A stretch of 64,000 nucleotides of DNA from Escherichia coli (GTDB lineage Bacteria; Pseudomonadota; Gammaproteobacteria; Enterobacterales; Enterobacteriaceae). Under the pieces are notes generated by a model. That model was not told the origin of the DNA and did no database searches. It saw nothing but the letters and a program-made list of their open reading frames with translations. The translations under genes and the position numbers were made by a program. Positions 3,287 to 16,769 of this stretch are shown one piece after another; within the stretch, counting starts at the first letter, position 1; every line of letters starts with the position of its first letter. Where the stretch lies: NCBI RefSeq assembly GCF_030013595.1, contig NZ_CP122768.1; one strand, 5' to 3'.

Positions 3287-5293
3287 TCACTCTTCGCCAA
3301 TTTTCAGAACTTTCAGAGCTTCCGGCTGTGCTACAACGTAGTCCAAATCTACAAAGATACGAGGCACTACCGCACCACGGTCACGGTATGTAGTTAGATC
3401 CATATCCAGTTCCAGACCGCCCCACTCACCGATGGTAATACCGGAGAAGTCACCCAGAACGATGTGGTCTGCCGGAATAACGCCAGAAGTAACTACTTCG
3501 TAACCAGCCAGTTTGCCGTTTTCGATGATATAACCGGAAACGCCGTTATCTTTCAGGGTAGATTCCAGTTCGGCAGCAGTTGCACCGCTCATTGCAAACT
3601 TGATCGCCTGAGCAGGAACGCCAGCGTCGGTCAGTGCTGCAATTTCTTTCAGGAAGTCTTTATAAGAGAAAGCAGCTTTCTTGGTAACGCGGCTAGCGTC
3701 TACCAGTTGCTTAACCAGACCAGCCGGACCACGAGCATTTTCTTTATCAGACAGAATCAGTTGTTCCAGTTTGATACGAACAGCTTTGTTAATGTGATCA
3801 GTGATCAGGGTAGCGATGCCCGGAACGGTTTTCAGCGACTGACGGCTGATCGGGTTGCCACCAGCAAAAGTTTTCGGAGACAGTTTCACGTTCGCAAATT
3901 CAGCTTTGCTTTCCGGTGCAGCACCGTTTTCATCAACGAAGCCGAAAGCGTCAACGCTGGAAGCGGTCATTTTTGGAATAGCGGTCGGGGAGTTCAAGCC
4001 ACTGTAAACAGTCACACCCAGACGACCCAGACACGAAGCAGGAAGCAGCATTTCGATGTAGGATTCAGTCATCAGTTTTTCGTCAGTGATAGCGGTCAGG
4101 TCGGCTTTGGTGTTACCAGCAGAAGCAGCACGCAGAGCAGCAGCCGGAACGAATACAGAGCCACCACGAGCAGCACGACCACGCTGCATAGTTGCAGTAG
4201 CAGCCATTGCGGAATATTCAGCTTCGTTAGCGCCGAGCACGTCGCCATCTACCAGGGAGCGGATTACGTTATTAAGATCGAAAGTTTTTTCCATGATTTG
4301 TTCCTTATTAATTTGTTCGTTATTACGTTGAGCATTGGTAATGTTATTTAGTGCCTTAGTGCGGAATGCTTCCGGCGTCATGTCTTTAATTGCCAATGCG
4401 CGTGCTAATTCAGAGTCATCAATATTTAGTTCGCGTGCAATTTCGCGAATTTCTAATTCGTCTTCTTCGGAACGTTCAGCCACTTCCTCGGTTTTTTCTT
4501 CTTCAACCGGAGCGGCTTCACGTTCTTCTTTTACTTCTTCTGTTTCCCGAACAGTTGAACTATCATCATCAACACTTTCAGGATGTTCAGCGTCTTTTCC
4601 GTCTTCGAGATTTTCATCTTCTTTATTCTCTTCAACTTGGCGCTCTTGAGTTTCTTCAACTTCCGGTTCTTTATTTTCTTCTACCGGAGTTTCTTCAACC
4701 TGAGCGGCTTCTTGTTCTTCTTTGATTTCTTCGATTTGTTCTTTAGTCATATCGCGTTTAGCCCCCAAATTAACTGTGATAGTATTTAGAGAGCGATTTA
4801 AACCGACCGTATCGTCTGCGGGCACCGACACCCATGAAATCTCGTGAGGAATCCATTTAGAAACAATGAGTTGCGATTTAGCGTAGTCGATGTGATATTC
4901 TTTAATGTCATAACCGACAGAAATTTTTTCCATCGTACCTTCAATGACTTTATTGCGAATATCATTAGCCAAAGTGCCATGCTTAGAGAATCTAACGGTC
5001 GCACGGCCTACGTTATCCGCATCGATTCGAGCGTTACAAACGACACCAATGTGATTATCGAAATTGTGATTGAACAGCAACGGAGCGTTATTATTCAGAC
5101 GAGACAGATCAACCGCTTCCGGTGTATGTACCAGAATTTCATCTAATACCACCATTTCTTGATTTTGCTCATCCCAAAATTGGCGCTGATAAGGCTGTGT
5201 ACTTGAGAAAGCAATTTCAAATTCGTATTGATCGTTATGCCCTTCATTAATAACTCCACCGTAACCGTTAAGATCGCGGCGAAATTTAAGCAT
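3287..5293 (-). CDS. Prohead protease / scaffold-like acidic linker / major capsid protein fusion (HK97-like), 668 aa
   Basis: ORF track; N-terminal ~170 aa protease-like (LLFNHNFDNHIGVV), central Glu/Lys-rich repeat segment, C-terminal ~370 aa capsid-like; SD AAAGGTGA. Confidence 0.7.
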   Translation of the reverse strand: MLKFRRDLNGYGGVINEGHNDQYEFEIAFSSTQPYQRQFWDEQNQEMVVLDEILVHTPEAVDLSRLNNNAPLLFNHNFDNHIGVVCNARIDADNVGRATVRFSKHGTLANDIRNKVIEGTMEKISVGYDIKEYHIDYAKSQLIVSKWIPHEISWVSVPADDTVGLNRSLNTITVNLGAKRDMTKEQIEEIKEEQEAAQVEETPVEENKEPEVEETQERQVEENKEDENLEDGKDAEHPESVDDDSSTVRETEEVKEEREAAPVEEEKTEEVAERSEEDELEIREIARELNIDDSELARALAIKDMTPEAFRTKALNNITNAQRNNEQINKEQIMEKTFDLNNVIRSLVDGDVLGANEAEYSAMAATATMQRGRAARGGSVFVPAAALRAASAGNTKADLTAITDEKLMTESYIEMLLPASCLGRLGVTVYSGLNSPTAIPKMTASSVDAFGFVDENGAAPESKAEFANVKLSPKTFAGGNPISRQSLKTVPGIATLITDHINKAVRIKLEQLILSDKENARGPAGLVKQLVDASRVTKKAAFSYKDFLKEIAALTDAGVPAQAIKFAMSGATAAELESTLKDNGVSGYIIENGKLAGYEVVTSGVIPADHIVLGDFSGITIGEWGGLELDMDLTTYRDRGAVVPRIFVDLDYVVAQPEALKVLKIGEE

Positions 5294-7427: not shown

Positions 7428-9332
7428 TTAGAACGATGTTACCCAGCTACGGCCTCTATTTGGGCGTCTGACGATGTTTTGACGTTGTGGTCGTGTGATT
7501 GGCTTAGTTTCTTCGATTTGCTCGTCAGATTGCGATTTAGGAGCTTCTACAGGTTCTTCTGGTTCACGGTTCAAACTATCTTTGATGGCTTCGAGTTTTT
7601 CCCATGACATTTTATTGAGTACATGACGAGAAGCAGCATAGGAATAAGCCAGGCAGTCCAACGCTTCGTTTCGTGTTTGTCCAACTTTTACCCAACGTGT
7701 GGTATTACCCTGCCGTTTCAACTGTTCAGAAAGCAATTGCTCGCAATAGTCATCAGGAACGTCACCAATCTGGAAGACAGTGTGAGGATCGCCATCTCTC
7801 AAGTTCCGGTTAATCATTTCACGGATCATCGTTTTAAGGTTGTTTACGCCCAGAATTTTAAGGGTAAAACCACCCGTTCTTGTGTCTTTTACCGGAAGGA
7901 TTGGTGCATCAACATTGCTTGCGCCTTTAATGGCGGTTAGATTTTGCCACCGACTACAGAATCGATAGATCACGTTTGTAGCTCGTCCGTTCGATGAGTC
8001 CACGAAAGCAGATAACATCGGGATTCGTTCACCGGATCGGGTATAGAATTTAGCTTTCAGGAAGTTGTAAAGCTGGTTATATGCTGGTGATTCGTGGCGT
8101 TCGCAGTTCACATCATAGAATGATCGGTGATCAACTACGCATAGCCCTTTACGAGAAATACCCAGCAAGGTAGATTCCAGACGGTCTTTTTGCTGGTCAA
8201 CTCCACCTACCAGAGCCAGTACATCATCAGGAATATTGTCTAGGCTAATATCAGTTTTCAGCGTTTCTAATTCGTCGGCTGTGCGGTCTTCGTTAAGATC
8301 ATCGAAGGTTTCACCGAGGACTGTATTGTAGAACGTTGCCAGGGACATATTCGCGTAGCTATCAGCAAAGTCCACCACACACGCACGGATAGAACTAAAC
8401 GGAGACATAAGGCGGTTAGCATGAAAACCGATTACTTCCGCGTTTGGTTCGGTGGCGACCCATTCTCCCTGTCCAACAGCACGTAGGCGATCACCCTCGG
8501 TCCAATCGGTTTCACATTCAGGGCAACGGTAAACGGCTGTATCTGGGTTGGGTAATGATTTACCGTTAATCGTATGCCAATCGAAATGTACGTTACTCCA
8601 TTCCATTACGTGCTTGTGTCCGCAATGCTGGCAAACGACATGATATTTTCTCTTATCCGAGAGTTCCCATTGTTGGTTAATCGCCCCATCACGAGCGGTT
8701 GGAGTGGAAGCAATTACGATCCTTGCATCTTCCCCGAAAGTGGTTGCGCGTTGTTCCGCTAGTTGGATCGGGTTCCCTTCGTCTGACTCATCAGCCGCAT
8801 CAACTTCATCAAGAATAATCAAAGGGAGTGTTTTACCGCGAAGATGTGACGGACTATTCAACGACATGAAATACATAAACGATCCGTTACGAAGCTGAAT
8901 AATCGATGAGTTGTTAACGGCATTGCGATCTGATTTGTCGGTGATCATCGCCTTTAATTCTGGTGTTGCCTCTAATACTGGCTTCACCTTACCAGCGATC
9001 CAAGAATTTAGTTCTCTAACGTTACTTTGCAACACCCCAATATTAGTAGGGTTACTCGCGATCCGATGGAAGATAATTCCGTTAAGAATCATGGTCTTAC
9101 CCAACTGTGCCGAACATTTAAACACAATTTTTCTACGGTCTTCGGTGATCGCGTCCATCATTCCACGTTGGAAGGGATGCAATTTAATTAGCGATCCGGC
9201 TTTAACACCATCGGTTGCAACTACATTAGCCTCTACCCATTCGCTAGGTTTCATCGTTTTAGGTGGGCGAATTGCCGCAGAGATATTTTTAAGAATCTTT
9301 TTTAATTTTGCCTTGTTCGAAATCAGTTTCAT
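7428..9332 (-). CDS. Terminase large subunit, lambda GpA family, 634 aa
   Basis: ORF track; recalled lambda gpA similarity: ..HPFQRGMMDAI.. near N-terminus, Walker-A-like KCSAQLGKT, C-terminal RNEALDCLAYSYAA matching gpA RNEALDCFVYALAA. Confidence 0.85.
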   Translation of the reverse strand: MKLISNKAKLKKILKNISAAIRPPKTMKPSEWVEANVVATDGVKAGSLIKLHPFQRGMMDAITEDRRKIVFKCSAQLGKTMILNGIIFHRIASNPTNIGVLQSNVRELNSWIAGKVKPVLEATPELKAMITDKSDRNAVNNSSIIQLRNGSFMYFMSLNSPSHLRGKTLPLIILDEVDAADESDEGNPIQLAEQRATTFGEDARIVIASTPTARDGAINQQWELSDKRKYHVVCQHCGHKHVMEWSNVHFDWHTINGKSLPNPDTAVYRCPECETDWTEGDRLRAVGQGEWVATEPNAEVIGFHANRLMSPFSSIRACVVDFADSYANMSLATFYNTVLGETFDDLNEDRTADELETLKTDISLDNIPDDVLALVGGVDQQKDRLESTLLGISRKGLCVVDHRSFYDVNCERHESPAYNQLYNFLKAKFYTRSGERIPMLSAFVDSSNGRATNVIYRFCSRWQNLTAIKGASNVDAPILPVKDTRTGGFTLKILGVNNLKTMIREMINRNLRDGDPHTVFQIGDVPDDYCEQLLSEQLKRQGNTTRWVKVGQTRNEALDCLAYSYAASRHVLNKMSWEKLEAIKDSLNREPEEPVEAPKSQSDEQIEETKPITRPQRQNIVRRPNRGRSWVTSF

Positions 9333-11451: not shown

Positions 11452-11784
11452 TTACCAATCGATTTCTACTTGGTCTTCTTCATAATAAGGAATCGCATAT
11501 TCATAACGCCAATTTTCGATGATTTCACGTTCTTCATTAGTAAGAAGGTGATTGTTAACTGGAGTCGCATTGTGATTACCAGCTTCGAATTGCTCGCGAA
11601 CTTCCAGCATTGCATGAATACCAGTTAAGGACATCAGATCAAACGGAACATGCATACTACGGGAGATTGTTTCACGGGATACGCCCCAATCATTTTCTAC
11701 ATGGCTAGGGGTTACAGAAACGGTTTTGCCGGAGATTTTAACAGTCCAGTCATACAGGGATTTAGTGATGGTAAATTCTTTCAT
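11452..11784 (-). CDS. Hypothetical protein, 110 aa
   Basis: ORF track; directly downstream of a consensus promoter. Confidence 0.4.
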   Translation of the reverse strand: MKEFTITKSLYDWTVKISGKTVSVTPSHVENDWGVSRETISRSMHVPFDLMSLTGIHAMLEVREQFEAGNHNATPVNNHLLTNEEREIIENWRYEYAIPYYEEDQVEIDW

Positions 11785-11825
11785 GTTACATCCTCTTTAC
11801 AAATCTAGGTCAAATAGGTTCAAAG

Positions 11826-11883
11826 TTGTCAAGTGCGATAATCATAAAAAAGTTTGAAGATATTGTCAAATACCACTTGACAA
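11826..11883 (-). promoter_or_regulatory. Consensus sigma70 promoter (TTGACA-17-TATGAT, minus strand) bracketed by a 10-bp inverted repeat TTGTCAAGTG / CACTTGACAA
   Basis: -35 at plus 11864-11869, -10 at plus 11841-11846; inverted-repeat arms at 11826-11835 and 11874-11883. Confidence 0.5.
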
Positions 11884-11905
11884 GACACCAAAGGGTTGAC
11901 CTAAC

Positions 11906-12094
11906 TTACAGCATATCTAAGCCTTCATCGTAACCGTAGAAGCCATTCTGAGAAGAGAAGCAGATTGGTGCGTAGTCGTCGTCATCTTCGTCTTGTTCAT
12001 CTTGTTCTGGGGCTTCCTGAGCGGTTTCTTTGCCGTAGTTAAACATGGCTTCATCCAGTTCATAGTGGAAATCCTCTAAAAGAAAGTGAATCAA
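11906..12094 (-). CDS. Small strongly acidic protein (62 aa from TTG; 46 aa from internal ATG); frame uncertain
   Basis: ORF track (TTG start); acidic run EAPEQDEQDEDDDDY; an alternative overlapping frame has the better SD. Confidence 0.25.
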   Translation of the reverse strand: MIHFLLEDFHYELDEAMFNYGKETAQEAPEQDEQDEDDDDYAPICFSSQNGFYGYDEGLDML

Positions 12095-12700
12095 TCTAAT
12101 ATTATTTATAAAGAGAAAATTCTTGTTATTATGAAAGGAGTGATCTGGTAGAGTCCAAAACTGGTCTGTACTTGAAAGGTGATTGGATTCAGTCGGGCAA
12201 AGCCCTCCTTCATGTTTTGATTAAATCATCATCAAAACGAAGAAGTATCTTTAGAATATAAGATCTTTCTTTTGGAGAAATAATAATCAGGAAGCAATTT
12301 GGCAACCGAAGGTTGCAATCCCGAAGGGATAACCAATACCTTTCTAGAAAGTGATTGTTACTCACTTCGTTCGTTTACTAGAATCAGTTATCATCTGGTA
12401 TTAAATCCCTTTCTAAGAAAATCCTTTCAAAAGTGATTCTCGATGCCACGCAGTGGCGTCGCAGACGTTTGGGAGTGAGCGAAGCGAGCGAGCAAACTAG
12501 TTAATTCCTTCTAAGACCATCTAGTATCATCTAGTTTAAATTAGTTGTTACTAGAAGCAATTGGTTGGCGCTTCGCGCAGTCGGGCTAAAGCCCTCCTAA
12601 TTATCTTTTTGGTTATTTGTTGTTTTTAGTTTTACACATGAGCGTAGCGAATGTGTTATATAATATCTATGCACGCCCAATCCCCCGCTTTTTCCCCTCA
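12095..12700. other. ~600 bp hairpin-dense non-coding region (candidate structured RNA or DNA-level origin/packaging signals)
   Basis: No ORF; many short-loop hairpins (GCAACC-GAA-GGTTGC, ATCCC-GAA-GGGAT, GCCAC-GCA-GTGGC, GCGC-TTC-GCGC); CTAG-rich; ~20-bp direct repeats CAGTCGGGC(T)AAAGCCCTCCT at ~12190-12209 and ~12578-12598. Confidence 0.5.
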
Positions 12701-12743
12701 CTAAGTTAATGTTTTATAAAGAGTTTTTCTCACCAATCCTTTT

Positions 12744-12931
12744 CGGGGGCAAATTTCAGGGGCAAAAATTAGATTTTCAGGGGCAAAAATAGTGGGTTTC
12801 AGGGGCAAAAATGAGGGGCAAAATCACTGTTTCCCAGAATTTCAGGGGCAAAAATAGTGGGTTTCAGGGGCAAAAATGGGATGTGGAATCTAGGGGATTT
12901 TGGTTCAGGGGCAAAATTCAGGGGCAATTTT
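12744..12931 (+). repeat. Iteron array: 9 copies of (TTCA)GGGGCAAAAAT, including an exact 38-bp duplication
   Basis: Read directly; copies at ~12746, 12759, 12780, 12802, 12815, 12845, 12867, 12908, 12921; 38-mer TTCAGGGGCAAAAATAGTGGGTTTCAGGGGCAAAAATG at 12777 and 12841. Confidence 0.85.
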
Positions 12932-12968
12932 CATAGTGTAGGGCTAGTGTAGGTTTGAAAATCCTTTG

Positions 12969-13025
12969 TTGACACTGTGTAGGATCGGTGGTATACTTGA
13001 AAATTCGAGATAAATATGTTATAAT
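12969..13025 (+). promoter_or_regulatory. Tandem near-consensus sigma70 promoters next to the iterons
   Basis: P1 TTGACA (12969-12974), 17 bp, TATACT (12992-12997); P2 TTGAAA (12997-13002), 17 bp, TGtTATAAT (13017-13025). Confidence 0.55.
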
Positions 13026-13171
13026 ATTTGTATTGAAAGTGAAAATTTACCGATTTTCCTTCCTATTGTTATCACCGTGTTAAATTGTTATATGTCTGTG
13101 AAGATTTGGATCTGAGAGAAAATCTTGTAACAAATCTTTACAATTCATAGCTCAATTAATGCTCACCGCTT

Positions 13172-13310
13172 TAGCAAAAAGTGCTATGCCTTTTTCTAAA
13201 TTGATTGAATATACATCAATTTGGTTAAATCGTGTTCTTCGCTTTAGCAATTCGTGCTGTGGTTTAACACATTTAACACGTCTGATAACATCTGAATAAC
13301 ATTTTAACAT
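13172..13310 (+). promoter_or_regulatory. Operator-like palindromes and phased TAACAY repeats upstream of the 60-aa gene
   Basis: TAGCAaaaagTGCTA (13172-13186) and TAGCAattcgTGCTg (13245-13259); five TAACAC/TAACAT copies at ~10-11 bp spacing in 13264-13310. Confidence 0.45.
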
Positions 13311-13445
13311 ATCTCTGTTATAAATACATATATAAGAGATAAATGTGAGGGGTTGAAAAATAAAATACAATCCCATATAAATAATAGTGAGCGGTTAACG
13401 CTCTTTTTTAAGAAATCATTAATCCACATTGTAGGAGGATTCGAG

Positions 13446-13628
13446 ATGGCACGACCTGTTAAGTTCACTCGCGAAATCATCTTAGAAATGGCTAAACGCT
13501 ACTTTGAGTTAACGCCGGGTGTGAGAATTGAAGAGTGGTTTAAAAATGAGGGCATCGATAAATCAACCTTTCATAAACTGCTAAAACGATATGACATTAA
13601 AGTGAAGATTGAAGCTACCGTTTGGTAA
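13446..13628 (+). CDS. Small putative DNA-binding protein, 60 aa (paralog of 9499..9732)
   Basis: ATG with AGGAGGA SD inside tracked ORF 13353..13628 (which begins at TTG); MARPVKFTRE motif. Confidence 0.5.
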   Translation: MARPVKFTREIILEMAKRYFELTPGVRIEEWFKNEGIDKSTFHKLLKRYDIKVKIEATVW

Positions 13629-13742
13629 TCAACTTTGACTGAGAATTATATGATGGCTTTAAAAAAGAAAAAGCCTCCTTTGCTGCAACAAGGGAGGCTT
13701 GAAATGAACAATTAAAACTAACTTTCCATAGGAGTATTTATA

Positions 13743-14684
13743 ATGTTATTTTCCGCTAACTTTTTCACTAACGAAGTAACCAACGCTAAAGCAGTTATCA
13801 AATTTGGCACCGAAGCAAACAAGAAGATTCAGCCGAAAGTTGTTGCTCATGTTTCCTTTGCGCAGCAGAAATCCGCTTTCGCTGGCTTTAAAGCACATCG
13901 TGAAGCACTGATCGCGGCTGGCTTTGGTGTTGACGGTAAACTGCCTAACGGCATTCGTAAAGCAATCGACCGCGTTAAACCAGTTAAAGACGTTGCAGTA
14001 GACCACATCGTTACTTTTACCGTTAAGAACTCTTCTGAACTGTTCCACCTGGTTATTGCTGGTGATACTGCTATCGTTTCCGCTCCTAACATGGATTTTC
14101 AGGATACCGCTGATTGCCAGATCACCTTCGGTCGTCGTAAAGAAGTTACCGGAAAAGCTAAACTGAACTTCACTAAATCCGGCAATCCTTACTTTGCTGT
14201 ATTCTTTAACAGCCACGCTACCGAAAAAGAAGTTGTAGAACTGGTTGCTTATGAAGGTGAAGAGAAAGAACGTATTGAATCTTGCGAAGCATTTCTGGAA
14301 CTGGAAGCACAGGTGAATGCTGTTTCTCCGGTTGTTGAAGATCGCTTTGCTGCACTGGAAGCACAGATCGCAGAACTGAAAGCTGCACTGGAAGAAAAAG
14401 ACCAGATTATCGAAGCACAGAAAGCTGAGATTGAAGAACTGAAAGCTAAAGAAGTTGCTCCGGTGGCAGTAGTTGAAAACGCGGCTGATGAGGCCGCAAA
14501 TGATGAAGTAGAAGTGAAAATCGATGTGATGCGTGATCCGATGGCTGCACTGCAATTACTTCGTTCTTTTAAGGGCAAATCTCATTTTTCTAGTGATGTA
14601 GAAGATGAGGAAGAAGAACAGAAACGCAATGCTGCAATGCTTCATGATGAAATGTACGGTACTAACTTTTCTTACTGCCAATAA
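13743..14684 (+). CDS. Hypothetical protein, 313 aa: unrecognised N-terminal domain, coiled-coil, acidic C-terminal tail
   Basis: ORF track; AGGAG SD; heptad-like ALEAQIAELKAALEEKDQIIEAQKAEIEELKAKE; no NTPase or nuclease motif seen. Confidence 0.5.
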   Translation: MLFSANFFTNEVTNAKAVIKFGTEANKKIQPKVVAHVSFAQQKSAFAGFKAHREALIAAGFGVDGKLPNGIRKAIDRVKPVKDVAVDHIVTFTVKNSSELFHLVIAGDTAIVSAPNMDFQDTADCQITFGRRKEVTGKAKLNFTKSGNPYFAVFFNSHATEKEVVELVAYEGEEKERIESCEAFLELEAQVNAVSPVVEDRFAALEAQIAELKAALEEKDQIIEAQKAEIEELKAKEVAPVAVVENAADEAANDEVEVKIDVMRDPMAALQLLRSFKGKSHFSSDVEDEEEEQKRNAAMLHDEMYGTNFSYCQ

Positions 14685-14707
14685 AAAAAGGGACTCCGAA
14701 GAGTCCC
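14684..14707. terminator. Terminator hairpin (A-run/hairpin; works for minus-sense transcripts, possibly bidirectional)
   Basis: AAAAAA then GGGACTCCGAAGAGTCCC immediately after the 313-aa stop. Confidence 0.5.
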
Positions 14708-14780
14708 TAGTAAGTTTAGGTTAGGTTTGCACAACAAAGATGAGGTTATAATGAATATAATGCTACATTATTCTTTAAAG

Positions 14781-14811
14781 CCAGAAAAATAACCGCCCCC
14801 TTCGGGGCGGG
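14781..14811 (-). terminator. Second minus-sense terminator hairpin
   Basis: CCGCCCCCTTCGGGGCGG with T-rich tract on the minus sense; ~100 bp from the previous hairpin. Confidence 0.4.
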
Positions 14812-14968
14812 AGGATTAATACTCAATCTATACTTGTTATGTTTTTATGTTGTATAGTCACTGACTATGAAAACACTGTACTGAATGTGTTTTATGGCTT
14901 TTAATCGGGAACTCTCTTTCGAAAATTCCCTGTTAAAACCACATAAGGAGAAAAGGCAGATTACAATA

Positions 14969-15253
14969 TTATTTAGTCTGTTTGAAAACGAACGTTAAAA
15001 ATTCGATTAAGCAATATACCCAAAGTACGGTCAGCATCAAATGCATAGCAATAGTTGGATGGAAGTTAAAAAGTGTCATACTAACTAGGCCAACAATATA
15101 AGAAATTCCTTCGACAATTAACGCAAGGCTAGCAAATGCAACAAACGCACCTAAGAATAATTCGCCTCGTTCTTTCGGTTCGGTTCCGAGTTTATAAGCA
15201 GAGATAGCAGCCAGAATAGTAATGATGACAGCATAGGTAATAAAAGTAGCCAT
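14969..15253 (-). CDS. Small membrane protein, 94 aa (three predicted TM helices)
   Basis: ORF track; AAGAGGA SD; hydrophobic segments separated by charged loops. Confidence 0.5.
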   Translation of the reverse strand: MATFITYAVIITILAAISAYKLGTEPKERGELFLGAFVAFASLALIVEGISYIVGLVSMTLFNFHPTIAMHLMLTVLWVYCLIEFLTFVFKQTK

Positions 15254-15269
15254 AGTTTTATATCCTCTT

Positions 15270-15298
15270 AAAAGTTAAGCGGGGGATGTTCTCCCCCG
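15270..15298 (-). terminator. Terminator after the terS-like gene
   Basis: Hairpin CGGGGGATGTTCTCCCCCG with T-rich minus-sense tail. Confidence 0.45.
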
Positions 15299-15345
15299 TA
15301 GACGTTGACCATCAACATCTTTCATACATTTATTTATAACGCGTT

Positions 15346-15903
15346 TTAAGACACATCAAATTCATCGTCTTCTTCTGGTTCTTGTTCTTCCGGTTCATCC
15401 ATTAATGGTAATTCTTCTTCCTCGTCTTCTCCCAAATCTGCATTTTCGAACAAGTCCCCTACTTCATTTAAACGACGCTCGATGATCTCCCTTAGCTTAT
15501 TCTTTAATGTTTTCTGGTCATTGGCAGATTCGAGAATTTCTAGGGCATCGATCGTACAAATCTGCAAAATAGTCTGCTTCACTTTCCCGCAATATTCCGC
15601 TAGTTGCTGTTCTACATAACCGACAGGAATCAGGAGGTTCATTTTTTCCTGATTCTCTCGTTCGGCTGCATCTGCCATTGCTCTTTCTCTGCGGAGACGT
15701 TCTTGATCAATCGCTTCTTTGATTGAAGTTTGTTTAAGTGGGTTAATTACGTTCTTTAGCACCCAATCGCAACCTTCCTTTGCCGGAACACGCCTCTTAT
15801 TGGTATTGTAAGGTAGTCCCCTTTCTAACCATCGCTTACCGCCACCATTCAATGTATAGCCATATAAACGGGAAATTTCTGTAAGGGTTAATTCTTCTTT
15901 CAT
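15346..15903 (-). CDS. Nu1-like small terminase subunit candidate (winged-HTH protein with acidic C-terminus), 185 aa
   Basis: ORF track; strong GGAGGA SD; GGGK and W.ERGLP motifs loosely like lambda Nu1 (recalled); first gene inside the element boundary. Confidence 0.4.
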   Translation of the reverse strand: MKEELTLTEISRLYGYTLNGGGKRWLERGLPYNTNKRRVPAKEGCDWVLKNVINPLKQTSIKEAIDQERLRRERAMADAAERENQEKMNLLIPVGYVEQQLAEYCGKVKQTILQICTIDALEILESANDQKTLKNKLREIIERRLNEVGDLFENADLGEDEEEELPLMDEPEEQEPEEDDEFDVS

Positions 15904-16350
15904 TGGTTATCCTCCATTAAATTTGCGTAATTTTATTTATTGGTTTTACGCAAAATCTAAGCGCCTAAATCGCATTCTAACGAAGGGAAAGATCCAGTAA
16001 TGGTAAGGGCTAGGAAGTGGGTTAATAGTCGCGTAGCGACCGCGCTAGGACTGCACTGATCACGTTTTAAAATCTCACACGCACATCAAAAACCGGGGTG
16101 CCGAAAACTCGCTTTATCTGACCCCGATCCAGAACCTAAATCATTTGTCAAGTCTTTCCGATTCAGTAAAGGGGAACATGCATCTAAGCTAGAGAAGCTC
16201 ATAAAGACTAAGTATGAATGCGGTGTTGTTAGTCGGGATGATATGCGAGACGGTTACACTGAAACGCTACCATTTGAAGCATTGCCGGAGATCATCACTA
16301 TCACCAACAAAATGATAAGCGAAAGCATCCTCGTAAGTAATTGATTCCTA

Positions 16351-16380
16351 AGCCCTGTCCTTGTGATGGGGCTTTTTTAT
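16351..16380 (+). terminator. Hairpin plus T-run at the element edge (third member of the AGCCCTG...GGGGCTTTTT family)
   Basis: AGCCCTGTCCTTGTGATGGGGCT followed by TTTTTT. Confidence 0.45.
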
Positions 16381-16394
16381 TGGAAAAATTTTAG

Positions 16395-16724
16395 TTATTG
16401 GGGTTTACAACATTTAGGTTTGCCAATTCGTCTGGCTAACTCTTGCTGAGTGATTTCTGACTGTAAAAAAGCATTTAACAGCAATACCTTAGAGGCGACA
16501 CTCAAAGGCACTTCAATAAAGTGATCGTGACTATTTAATGGCGAAGGTAACGGGATAAGCTCGTTATCTTCAAAATAAAAATCAAATGCGGTCAGTAAAG
16601 CATCTTTTGCCGCTTCCATCGCTTCAGCAACTGTTTCGCCCTGGGTCAACGCTTCAGGGATATCCACAAAAGAAACCATATAACCGCCTTCCGGCGCGGG
16701 TGTAAGAGTGACGGGATAACGCAT
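16395..16724 (-). CDS. hicB: HicB antitoxin, C-terminally truncated at the element junction
   Basis: Matches recalled K-12 HicB from MRYPVTLTPAPEGGYMV.. through ..ARRIGKPK, then 5 non-native codons (CCKPQ) and a stop; C-terminal DNA-binding domain missing. Confidence 0.7.
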   Translation of the reverse strand: MRYPVTLTPAPEGGYMVSFVDIPEALTQGETVAEAMEAAKDALLTAFDFYFEDNELIPLPSPLNSHDHFIEVPLSVASKVLLLNAFLQSEITQQELARRIGKPKCCKPQ

Positions 16725-16769
16725 AATTTCGACTGTCTCTCGCATGTCATTAACCTTTTTAATTGGCGA

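Follow-up and report, generated by a model that had tools for sequence, protein, structure and literature searches.

A codon-adapted prophage protein of Escherichia coli with type-matched upstream iterons as a candidate iteron-binding replication initiator

The window analysed in this study, a 64,000-nucleotide stretch of Escherichia coli DNA, contains at 13743–14684 on the plus strand an unannotated ORF that starts with ATG and encodes a protein of 313 amino acids. This ORF is a real gene, and its homologues at 50% identity (the Salmonella orthologue) and 34% identity have kept both length and synteny. The gene is located in an E. coli prophage of ~36 kb that has a serine recombinase and is integrated in hicB. 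Its operon contains a 60-aa gene and the 313-aa gene and nothing else. The 313-aa gene is on the strand opposite to the capsid gene, at a distance of 8 kb, and belongs to neither the head nor the tail module. The capsid gene (3287–5293) encodes a 668-aa product with a long acidic scaffold-like stretch in the middle, and its homologue was named major capsid protein by PGAP. E. coli and Shigella assemblies with a near-identical copy of the 313-aa protein numbered in the hundreds, and 34 of the 5,426 complete E. coli genomes had one. Roughly 1% of the complete E. coli genomes carried the prophage lineage, which was also represented among Shigella and Salmonella assemblies. None of the isolated phages was close, as the megablast match covered the tail-fibre tip only and the best terminase match was 44% identical, and a literature search by protein accession and insertion site returned nothing relevant.

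The features of the control region and of the protein are collected in Table 1. The N-terminal domain has a pI of 9.75 and a net charge of +8, and Lys, Arg, Asn and His account for many of its invariant positions. The AlphaFold model, which was of low confidence overall (mean pLDDT 57–59), showed an unbroken helix at residues 161–236 with a core pLDDT of about 70–82, and Pfam gave weak coiled-coil matches across residues 186–240. These results agreed with the coiled coil claimed in the original prediction, and the acidic tail was also confirmed, residues 161–313 having a pI of 4.28 and a net charge of −24 with the acidic run included. The same prediction was correct in describing a good Shine-Dalgarno sequence and a protein without NTPase or nuclease motifs.

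Table 1. Features of the control region and of the 313-aa gene in the window (types are the classes of N-terminal domain and cognate repeat described in the text).
Feature	Position	Strand	Remarks
Nine direct type-1 iterons, (T)TCAGGGGCAAAA	12743–12929	+	Proposed binding target of the 313-aa protein
Two TAGTGTAGG repeats between iterons and promoter	12934–12955	+	0–3 copies at type-1 loci, 6–9 at type-2 loci
Two tandem strong sigma-70-like promoters	12969–13025	+	TTGACA-17-TATACT and TTGAAA-17-TATAAT; extended −10 TG; directed toward the 60-aa and 313-aa genes
Terminator-like hairpin, GAGCGGTTAACGCTC then T run	13389–13409 (hairpin 13389–13403)	+	In the leader, just before the 60-aa gene
Conserved 60-aa gene	13446–13628	+	Always directly upstream of the 313-aa gene
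Conserved hairpin, 12-bp stem AAGCCTCCTTTG/CAAGGGAGGCTT, preceded by an A run	13671–13700		GGAGG in the 3' arm
Mini-ORF ATG-AAC-AAT-TAA	13704–13715	+	5 nt past the GGAGG of the hairpin 3' arm
GGAG Shine-Dalgarno sequence	13731–13734	+	8 nt before ATG; within conserved GGAGTATTTATA(A)ATG; preceded by a G-poor leader
N-terminal domain, residues 1–160	13743–14222	+	Basic, mixed alpha/beta, type-specific; proposed iteron-recognition domain
Long helix/coiled coil, residues 161–236	14223–14450	+	Proposed oligomerisation module
Acidic, mostly disordered C-terminal region, residues 237–313	14451–14684	+	Contains DVEDEEEE; terminal motif AAMLHDEMYGTNFSYCQ
G+C-rich hairpin directly past the stop codon	14689–14708		T run on the minus strand only

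The presence of iterons, noted earlier, was borne out by counting. The window contains 23 TCAGGGGCAAAA-like matches against 6.8 expected, of which nine are clustered in the array, and this count was reached in 0 of 100 shuffles. The start-to-start spacings within the array are 13, 21, 22, 13, 30, 22, 41 and 13 nt, and the phase coherence peaked at a period of 11 bp (R = 0.65). The repeats are direct and not palindromic, and they lie only on the upstream side of the rightward promoter, without overlapping its −35 element or flanking the promoter. No sigma-70-like promoter in leftward orientation was found beside the array in the window. The two promoter sites (12969–12997 and 12997–13025) each showed 11 of 12 matches. 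The equivalent of TTGACA-17-TATACT follows the array immediately on its 3' side at type-2 and type-3 loci, and the promoter of the common leader variant is common to all three types. Thus, two strong sites exist where the original prediction had placed iteron-proximal promoters; expression of the ORF from them is only plausible, because they are ~720 nt upstream and two hairpins and the 60-aa gene intervene. An AT-rich stretch (72–73% A+T at 13020–13140) adjoins the array. In addition, the Salmonella locus (L003) contains three perfect DnaA boxes in the interval that separates the 60-aa gene from the big gene, whereas the window and the other loci have only the conserved near-DnaA-box TAATCCACA. 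DnaA boxes were rejected as a general mark of an origin, the cluster being confined to the Salmonella locus.

The leader of the operon is rich in conserved elements. The terminator-like hairpin at 13389–13403 was kept in every related locus aligned and is possibly an attenuator, and the common leader variant has up to three terminators between promoter and gene. The 60-aa product, which gave no PHROG or NCBIfam match, may be a helix-turn-helix protein on a reading of its sequence by us rather than by any tool. The hairpin at 13671–13700 forms, on the plus strand, the 5' side of the untranslated region of the 313-aa gene. Read on the minus strand, it has the form of an intrinsic terminator and was so flagged in two other loci (L028 and L025); a search by eye for a minus-strand promoter, from which an antisense RNA ending there could start, gave no convincing candidate. 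The mini-ORF, consisting of a start, one or two codons and TAA, was kept in type-1 and type-2 loci including the Salmonella and AT-rich loci. Another ORF starting from ATGATGGC (13650) was considered as a small leader gene and is probably not coding, because frameshifts between loci alter the peptide while the DNA is conserved. The Rfam search over 11700–16500 detected no RNA family.

The codon adaptation of the 313-aa gene was extreme, which had not been noticed earlier. Its CAI of 0.644 was the highest in the window when the 31 ORFs with 200 aa or more were compared (median 0.279), and exceeded that of the capsid gene (0.487). The Salmonella orthologue reached 0.724, and values of 0.70–0.71 and 0.56 were obtained for type 2 and type 3, respectively. 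Such codon usage implies very high expression, with an abundance at the level of nucleoid proteins, and it occurs alongside strong promoters, a G-poor leader and hairpins at both ends of the gene. To our knowledge, the known initiators are not abundant and a CAI of 0.64–0.72 has no precedent among them.

The slot downstream of the conserved 60-aa gene was found to hold three types of N-terminal domain that could not be aligned with each other, in proteins of one overall architecture. Comparison of the three by hhalign was not significant (E = 0.05–0.7), and they may be analogous or may have diverged past detection. Each type has its own repeat at the same upstream position, which is TCAGGGGCAAAA for type 1, TAGTGTAGGTTT for type 2 and GGGGA-N6 for type 3. 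The sequence AGGGGCAA was present in 4–9 copies at type-1 loci and in none at type-2 loci. GTGTAGG occurred in 6–9 copies at type-2 loci and in 0–3 copies at type-1 loci and hence is not exclusive to type 2, and GGGGA-N6 was found in 14–16 copies at type-3 loci, partly at an exact spacing of 11 nt. The phasing of the repeats peaked at a period of 10.5–11.5 bp in all three types (R = 0.65–0.77), as expected from binding along one face of duplex DNA. A metagenome scan returned the same three types and no others, and a contig scan anchored on the 60-aa gene gave no match.

The type of the array and the type of the N-terminal domain were found to change together, which, like the type-matched pairs themselves, is new here. 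Mismatched pairs numbered zero in about 35 distinct loci, these loci not being phylogenetically independent. The DNA between repeats and gene has been swapped at least three times with the pairing kept, and the variants of the 60-aa gene, which lies in this interval, were found across types and were tied neither to the iteron type nor to the N-domain type. For example, a type-1 locus (L027) and a type-2 locus (L028) showed 94–100% identity over the 600 bp between array and gene, whereas their arrays were 30–42% and their genes 26–58% identical. Similarly, strain UTME-9 harbors two sibling prophages that are 98.4% identical across 30.7 kb, with differences confined to the control region, the big gene and the right-end cargo; the region in which they differ looks like an immunity region. 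Among the 5,426 complete E. coli genomes, the type-1 array was found in 32 and the full type-1 N-domain in 32, and the listed accessions correspond. Of the 18 type-2 genomes, only UTME-9, which carries both prophages, also had the type-1 array. The co-variation could in principle reflect shared ancestry together with gene conversion of the middle segment and not selection.

Types 1 and 2 have a conserved C-terminal motif in common after the acidic run, a further feature not described before; type-2 proteins carry QMALHDAIYDTNYSAYAYAA, which is related to the terminal motif AAMLHDEMYGTNFSYCQ of type 1. In some relatives (L019, P0124 and P0128) the C-terminal region is swapped for a different domain, referred to as type B. 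Furthermore, protein P0131 combines an ORF6N domain (E = 1.8e-20) with a coiled coil that is nearly the same (72% identity) and with the C-terminal domain of type B, and this layout suggested the N-terminal position as a DNA-binding slot. When the 72-aa type-B domain was used as query, one fragment was found, and tblastn of this domain against phages gave no match.

Searches of families and folds returned little. The initial homologue search gave proteins that were all at least 99% identical, and the search of 1.84 billion representatives gave three full-length clusters only. A protein of 2,097 aa (P0130) was rejected as a spurious homologue, being a repeat protein in an unrelated context. Sequence searches of Pfam, PHROGs, NCBIfam, PADLOC and PDB with types 1, 2 and 3 yielded coiled-coil noise only; this included Phage_scaffold PF06810 (i-E 1.1) and phrog_530 (E = 0.009), both confined to the coiled coil, and LmuB as the sole PADLOC match, a weak one in the coiled coil (E = 0.0038, 14.5 bits). 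The N-terminal domain matched no family or fold, including the Rep, O and winged-helix families, and no Pfam match to ORF6N, Bro, KilA-N or Rha was obtained in it; when the N-domain alignment was compared by hhalign with P0131, the ORF6N protein, E was 0.5. No SSB or OB-fold was matched in sequence, Foldseek placed an SSB at rank 43 (E = 1.8) with the low-confidence model, and a ribbon-helix-helix fold was not detected in the 313-aa protein. Thus, the N-terminal domain remained unrecognised as originally described, and the structure prediction and fold search gave no confident match to a known structural protein family.

These findings together suggested that the 313-aa protein is a type-specific DNA-binding protein of the prophage control and origin region. 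The protein probably binds the upstream iterons, and this is what the pairing of domain and repeat types points to; the iterons, noted earlier only as the site of promoters, are thereby its probable target. The basic N-terminal domain (about residues 1–160) would recognise the direct repeats 0.8 kb upstream, and the coiled coil would link protomers, allowing many copies to gather along an array whose phasing roughly follows the helix. The C-terminal acidic region, which carries the conserved terminal motif, may touch a partner or set the stability of the protein. Very large amounts, reminiscent of phi29 p6, would be made, probably early after induction, from the strong promoters beside the array. 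The most likely role appears to be that of an origin-binding initiator or organiser of phage DNA replication, like lambda O or plasmid Rep, and this part we propose tentatively; the complete reading, from iteron binding through to replication, is likewise possible but short of probable. The core prophage has no recognisable replication gene apart from this candidate, and no helicase, primase, polymerase or loader is annotated in the UTME-9 prophages, which suggests that the missing function is an initiator using the host replisome. A DEAD-box helicase considered as partner of the protein was dropped, being missing from the UTME-9 prophages. The direct-repeat arrays beside an AT-rich stretch and the DnaA-box trio of the Salmonella relative are consistent with a replication role. 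An array directly upstream of strong promoters is equally typical of a transcriptional regulator.

The main rival is an immunity repressor or silencer. It would cover the type-specific array, with divergent control promoters on either side, and prevent expression of the leftward operon of lytic and structural genes; the three types would in that case be heteroimmune classes. The co-variation of array and N-domain suits an operator–repressor pair as well as an origin–initiator pair, the UTME-9 prophages differ exactly in this module like heteroimmune siblings, strong promoters adjoin the array, and no CI-like repressor was recognisable elsewhere in the prophage. The layout also resembles that of the phage Mu repressor and the abundance that of a prophage-encoded nucleoid-type silencer. 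Moreover, ssrA-type degradation tags are known from unstable repressors, and the ends of type-2 (...AYAYAA), type-3 (...DFAA) and type-B (...RKAA) proteins resemble such tags; the window protein ends in ...SYCQ. We nevertheless consider a repressor rather unlikely. The array is made of direct repeats clear of the rightward −35 element, the window has no leftward sigma-70-like promoter beside it, and the conserved terminator between promoter and gene, up to three in the common leader variant, counts against steady expression in a lysogen. Known repressor genes have poor codon adaptation, and a CAI of 0.64–0.72 is far beyond their range. In strain BS74R-D, two prophages coexist whose 313-aa and 60-aa proteins are identical, and thus a shared type does not block double lysogeny.

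An early, abundant anti-defence protein acting as DNA mimic or decoy, as variable cargo past a small regulator in the manner of anti-CRISPR/aca loci, would fit the strong promoter, the conserved 60-aa partner, the hypervariable, highly expressed and largely acidic protein, and the empty family and fold searches that are common among anti-defence proteins. The defence or anti-defence role of the original prediction is improbable and leaves the joint change of array and N-domain across a recombined spacer unexplained. The N-terminal domain of the protein is basic and not acidic, and the one architecture in all types with a C-terminal motif common to types 1 and 2 argues for one conserved function and not a varied cargo set. 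A single-stranded DNA- or RNA-binding protein like T4 gp32 or T7 gp2.5, which might inhibit translation of its own mRNA by way of the 5' hairpin and the G-poor leader, would agree with codon adaptation in the range of very abundant proteins, with an N-terminal domain that is basic and beta-rich, with a conserved aromatic motif at the end of the acidic tail, and with the conserved 5' hairpin followed by an unstructured leader. It is no less improbable, for neither sequence nor structure searches matched an OB-fold or SSB, and type specificity tied to a duplex array is unexpected for a sequence-independent single-strand binder. The least credible roles are those of a centromere-binding adaptor like ParR and of a scaffold or decoration protein of the virion. 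An acidic-tailed binder and some ten phased direct repeats beside an operon promoter do recall R1 parC/ParR, but neither annotation nor searches revealed a ParM, ParA or TubZ-like gene in the ES2 and UTME-9 prophages, and the prophage is chromosomally integrated. Therefore, the partition adaptor suggested originally was disfavoured; 'adaptor-like' came closest among the earlier guesses in the limited sense of an array binder that offers its tail to a partner, which is not of the ParR type. The scaffold-like role fared no better, as the family matches that favour it are weak and restricted to the coiled coil, the gene is outside the head module on the opposite strand, and the capsid protein already has its own scaffold-like stretch.

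The candidate initiator was compared with known systems. In lambdoid O proteins a variable N-terminus co-varies with the iterons and is joined to a conserved C-terminal partner motif. Like O with its ori iterons and Rep initiators such as pSC101 RepA, R6K pi and P1 RepA, the prophage has a protein of ~300 aa beside a direct-repeat array, with an N-terminal part that changes together with the repeats and a C-terminal part that keeps a possible partner motif. It too encodes no recognisable replisome proteins and would be host-dependent, with an AT-rich stretch flanking the array and, in one relative, a DnaA-box cluster. Unlike these systems, it has no sequence or fold similarity to Rep_3, RepA or O, its repeats are ~12 bp in 9–16 copies spaced 11–22 bp instead of iterons of 17–22 bp, the array is 0.8 kb from the gene with the separate 60-aa gene between, and the protein includes a long coiled coil, is acidic over half its length and has codon usage that implies far greater abundance. 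The phi29 p6 protein would be similar in very high expression, in the proposed assembly of many copies on phased sites near a replication and early-promoter region, and in a possible dual role in replication and transcription. However, p6 has 104 aa, no strict sequence specificity, no coiled coil and no homology to the 313-aa protein, and belongs to another host and a phage with protein-primed replication.

The Mu repressor c is built in the same order, with DNA binding at the N terminus, multimerisation through a coiled coil in the centre and a tail at the C terminus. Mu c and CgpS-type silencers have many sites in the control region, as the 313-aa protein would have, with type-specific N-termini and targets among related phages, and the protease-tag-like C-termini of several relatives add to this likeness; homology was not found, the gene here lies downstream of a terminator-containing leader, Mu c is not abundant, and the window protein does not end in ...AA. 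The ORF6N, Bro-N, KilA-N and Rha proteins also combine a DNA-binding-type N-domain with a coiled coil and an exchangeable C-terminal domain, and P0131 links them to the relatives of the 313-aa protein, whose N-domain nevertheless has no detectable Pfam similarity to them; we know of no pairing of these families with type-specific repeat arrays. The R1 ParR/parC system shares the phased repeats and an acidic C-terminal tail for a possible partner, and differs in its ParM-like NTPase and in the size of ParR, the 313-aa protein being three times larger with no ribbon-helix-helix fold detected.

If iteron binding holds, the protein would be the specificity determinant, in replication, immunity or both, of an uncharacterised prophage lineage. 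Its recognition domain, for which no fold is known, comes in at least three versions that do not align with one another, and each version has its own repeat, which makes it a natural system for studying how protein–DNA specificity diversifies. The implied abundance is beyond the need of any known initiator or repressor, so the mode of action may be new. It is conceivable, though quite unlikely, that the protein represents a new class of phage-encoded nucleoid-protein-like DNA organisers made at HU- or H-NS-like levels, with a fast-evolving recognition domain nucleating on a type-specific array. Each phage would then mark or organise only its own genome among closely related co-residents, for replication, silencing or protection, and the acidic tail motif would be a handle for a host or phage partner.

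The three array–protein pairs could also serve as orthogonal DNA-binding parts, and the operon with its strong promoter, leader terminators, hairpin and mini-ORF, and optimised ribosome-binding region is a possible model or tool for very high regulated expression. At its distal end, the post-stop hairpin probably marks the 3' end of the 313-aa mRNA. Its T run on the minus strand only indicates that it terminates the convergent terS/94-aa operon, and the same hairpin was present in two other loci (L004 and L028).

The 313-aa ORF with a good Shine-Dalgarno sequence, as the original prediction described it, was confirmed, with GGAG placed 8 nt 5' of its ATG. It is a real gene, since near-identical copies are widespread (hundreds of assemblies; 34 of 5,426 complete E. 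coli genomes) and diverged homologues keep both length and neighbours in a Salmonella prophage (L003; 50% identity) and on an AT-rich contig (L004; 34% identity). The CAI of the gene was 0.644, the highest among the 31 window ORFs of at least 200 aa (median 0.279), as compared with 0.487 for the capsid gene and 0.23-0.38 for other phage genes. Because the Salmonella orthologue scored 0.724 though its protein is only 50% identical, the codon bias has been maintained independently in the diverged orthologue. This independently kept bias implied that the 313-aa protein would be produced in very large amounts, in line with the strong promoters, G-poor leader, ribosome-binding site and flanking hairpins.

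Features of the 313-aa gene, its control region and the surrounding prophage (window coordinates unless a locus is named)
Feature	Coordinates	Strand	Remarks
Distal part of tail-fibre gene	1-794	minus	
668-aa ORF	3287-5293		major capsid protein per PGAP in homologous prophage
gpA-type large terminase	7428-9332	minus	
62-aa remnant ORF	11906-12094		
Conserved non-coding region	12180-12720		~550 nt
Direct-repeat array (iterons)	12743-12929		
Two near-consensus sigma-70 promoters	12969-13025		predicted
74-aa ORF	13152-13376	minus	putative
60-aa gene	13446-13628		
Stable hairpin, 5' side of 313-aa gene	13671-13700		
Same hairpin with mini-ORF	13671-13715		
Conserved ribosome-binding region			GGAGTATTTATA(A)ATG, after G-poor leader
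313-aa gene	13743-14684	plus	
Hairpin directly 3' of 313-aa stop codon	14689-14708		
Nu1-like small terminase (terS)	15346-15903	minus	phrog_57, E 2.7e-11
hicB remnant	16395-16745		
Target-gene pieces at prophage ends	L065 3291-3410 and 39205-39516		
Target-gene pieces at prophage ends	L066 2776-3117 and 40340-40744		
Large serine recombinase, lysis genes, tail genes, portal			in complete element
Rha-family regulator			prophage gene
A few small prophage genes			without assigned function
Type 1 protein			query family; starts MLFSANFF
Type 2 protein			324-342 aa; starts MKNSKRITFN
Type 3 protein			333-337 aa; starts MKQNNFSITVY; second similar gene follows

The 60-aa gene is always found directly 5' of the 313-aa gene and is far better conserved (83% against 34% identity in L004), and it was used as the anchor for searching IMG/VR and metagenomes. 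In related prophages, the slot 3' of this gene holds proteins of the same build, each consisting of a beta-rich N-domain (~170 aa), then a coiled coil, an acidic stretch and, last, a short motif at the C-terminus, with N-domains of three mutually unalignable types. No significant similarity among these types was detected by hhalign, and family searches returned no family match for proteins of any type. All types are codon optimised (CAI 0.56-0.71; small downstream genes, 0.24-0.38). The type-2 tail ...EDTEEEQEE...QMALHDAIYDTNYSAYAYAA aligns with ...DVEDEEEEQKRNAAMLHDEMYGTNFSYCQ of the query, so conservation of the tail extends beyond one N-domain type. In some type-1 proteins (L019, P0124 and P0128), a different folded C-terminal domain replaces this tail; the same domain is present in an ORF6N-domain protein (P0131), whose coiled coil is 72% identical to that of the query. 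Type-2 proteins (L036 5301-6302, L042 5297-6322 and other loci) end in ...DTNYSAYAYAA or, in one longer variant, AYAYAYAYAYAA, resembling the ssrA degradation tag ...ENYALAA. Proteins with the alternative C-terminal domain and type-3 proteins likewise end in AA, and the downstream genes encode small coiled-coil proteins that terminate in ...LRIVA or ...LRLVA. In contrast, the C-terminus of the window protein is ...SYCQ.

The repeat array changes with the N-domain type. In the type-1 array of the window, TCAGGGGCAAAA is present as nine direct copies. At the equivalent position, loci of type 2 contain 6-9 copies of (TA)GTGTAGG(TTT) and zero AGGGGCAA, although GTGTAGG is not exclusive to them (0-3 copies in type-1 loci), and type-3 loci contain 14-16 copies of GGGGA-N6, some at exact 11-nt spacing. 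Coherence of the repeat positions peaked at a period of 10.5-11.5 bp in each of the three types (R 0.65-0.77), and this phasing of ~11 bp fits binding along one face of the DNA duplex. The pairing appears to be more than joint travel of neighbouring DNA, because the 60-aa gene, located between the array and the big gene, has variants that recur across types; because the 600 bp array-to-gene spacer of loci L027 and L028 is 94-100% identical while their arrays are 30-42% and their genes 26-58% identical; and because the sibling prophages of strain UTME-9 (98.4% identity over 30.7 kb) differ only in control region, big gene and right-end cargo. Among complete E. coli genomes, the type-1 array and the full type-1 N-domain were each found in 32, with corresponding accessions, and one of 18 type-2 genomes (UTME-9) also had a type-1 array. 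Mismatched pairs numbered 0 in about 35 distinct loci, a raw count over related loci that are not independent observations.

The module belongs to a ~36 kb prophage, whose right-hand part occupies the window up to about 16390 and which was read as a whole element in E. coli ES2 and UTME-9. Its 668-aa capsid ORF has a scaffold-like, Glu-rich and highly acidic middle of roughly 150 residues between N- and C-terminal parts and may be a fusion of protease, scaffold and capsid protein. The same lineage splits hicB in the window, UTME-9 and BS74R-D, and ycdX in ES2, UTME-9, BS74R-D and the Salmonella-type locus. Both serine recombinase genes of UTME-9 lie within the 98.4%-identical block, yet the two prophages occupy different target genes. 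A close isolated phage was not found by megablast, which matched the tail-fibre tip only, and the best terminase match among isolated phages was 44% identical.

In the simplest reading, which we consider likely, the N-domain would recognise the type-specific array, the coiled coil would join protomers, and the acidic tail, together with the conserved motif in it, would contact a partner or set protein stability. A role in origin binding, that is, in replication initiation or organisation, is favoured, though less certain than recognition of the array. The direct-repeat arrays adjoin an AT-rich stretch, three perfect DnaA boxes (TTATCCACA) lie beside the gene in the Salmonella relative, and no recognisable replication gene was found in the core prophage as read in ES2 and UTME-9. 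The DEAD-box helicase of ES2 is missing from the UTME-9 prophages, which makes it cargo. In addition, lambdoid O proteins have an N-terminus that varies together with the iterons and a conserved C-terminal motif, and the present family follows an O-like pattern. The leader, too, suggests that the gene is expressed once the prophage is induced and not during lysogeny, given the conserved terminator 5' of the 60-aa gene, to which the common leader variant adds two T-run hairpins.

In the main rival reading, the protein would act as an immunity repressor or silencer. In its favour, the module does resemble an immunity region, a CI-like repressor is not recognisable in the prophage, and several relatives carry the degradation-tag-like ...AA ends. 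Against it, the array consists of direct repeats 5' of the promoter core, the gene is located behind terminators, and BS74R-D carries a pair of prophages whose 313-aa proteins and 60-aa proteins are identical between the two. Codon optimisation also speaks against this rival, as repressor genes are not known to be codon optimised. The extreme expression is poorly explained by either origin binding or repression and is the most unusual feature of the gene. No description of the protein, its N-domain types or the array pairing was found in the literature searched; an iteron-specific protein defining the type of a mobile element is a known kind of system, whereas the fold, the predicted abundance and the operon design have no known precedent.

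The non-coding region upstream of the array shows conservation among relatives from E. coli and Salmonella and contains several G+C-rich hairpins, such as CAGTCGGGCAAAGCCCTCCT (twice), and 5-6 boxes like AATCCCTTTCTAAG or the palindrome CCTTTCTAGAAAGG, which are common to all three types. It gave zero Rfam matches and may serve the leftward (structural) operon as a structured leader, or hold operators for a regulator of all types. The common leader variant (L019, L025, L031, L036, L043 and L057-L059), about 400 nt 5' of the 60-aa gene, has in all three types a perfect palindrome (TTGACAACTGTCAA) that covers the strong promoter's -35 element. This palindrome resembles an operator at which one regulator, perhaps the 60-aa protein, would act in all types. 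The two repeated T-run hairpins of this variant lie 5' of the conserved terminator, a layout that recalls the leader-termination immunity of phage P4. ORFs like the 74-aa one between the promoters and the 60-aa gene occur in L017 and L050 (52-72 aa) and are absent from the other leader variant. In L003, the DnaA boxes lie in a ~200 nt insertion (7692-7859) between the 60-aa gene and the hairpin, which E. coli loci lack and which also carries the inverted repeat TTTTTGGGTCAAAAA / TTTTGACCCAAAAA.

The 3' arm of the hairpin on the 5' side of the big gene holds GGAGG, followed ~5-9 nt on by a mini-ORF (ATG, 1-2 codons, TAA). Its codons differ by locus (MNN, MKH, MT, MTH), with start and stop kept in type-1 and type-2 loci, and it is absent from type 3. 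This mini-ORF is reminiscent of the bar minigenes of lambda and may serve to load ribosomes or to control how the big gene is translated. Incomplete forms of the big gene also occur: on a metagenomic contig (L050 814-1535), an internal deletion and a frameshift have left 67-aa N-terminal and 123-aa C-terminal ORFs of a type-1 gene, and the complete genomes 14EC029 and EC05 have partial genes only, without the type-1 array.

Elsewhere in the window prophage, ~330 nt of a 153-aa minus-strand gene are deleted, leaving the 62-aa remnant; the gene is intact in ES2 and the Salmonella relative (compared with L001 15091-15555). A 101-aa plus-strand gene that separates terS from the attachment junction in ES2, UTME-9 and BS74R-D is not intact in the window, where the longest ORF of 15904-16394 is 33 aa. 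The tail-fibre DNA shares 94% identity with the tail-fibre gene of ELT4, a T-even-type phage, and 77-83% with gp37 of other T4-like phages, which indicates that the receptor-binding tip was exchanged recently between a temperate and a virulent phage.
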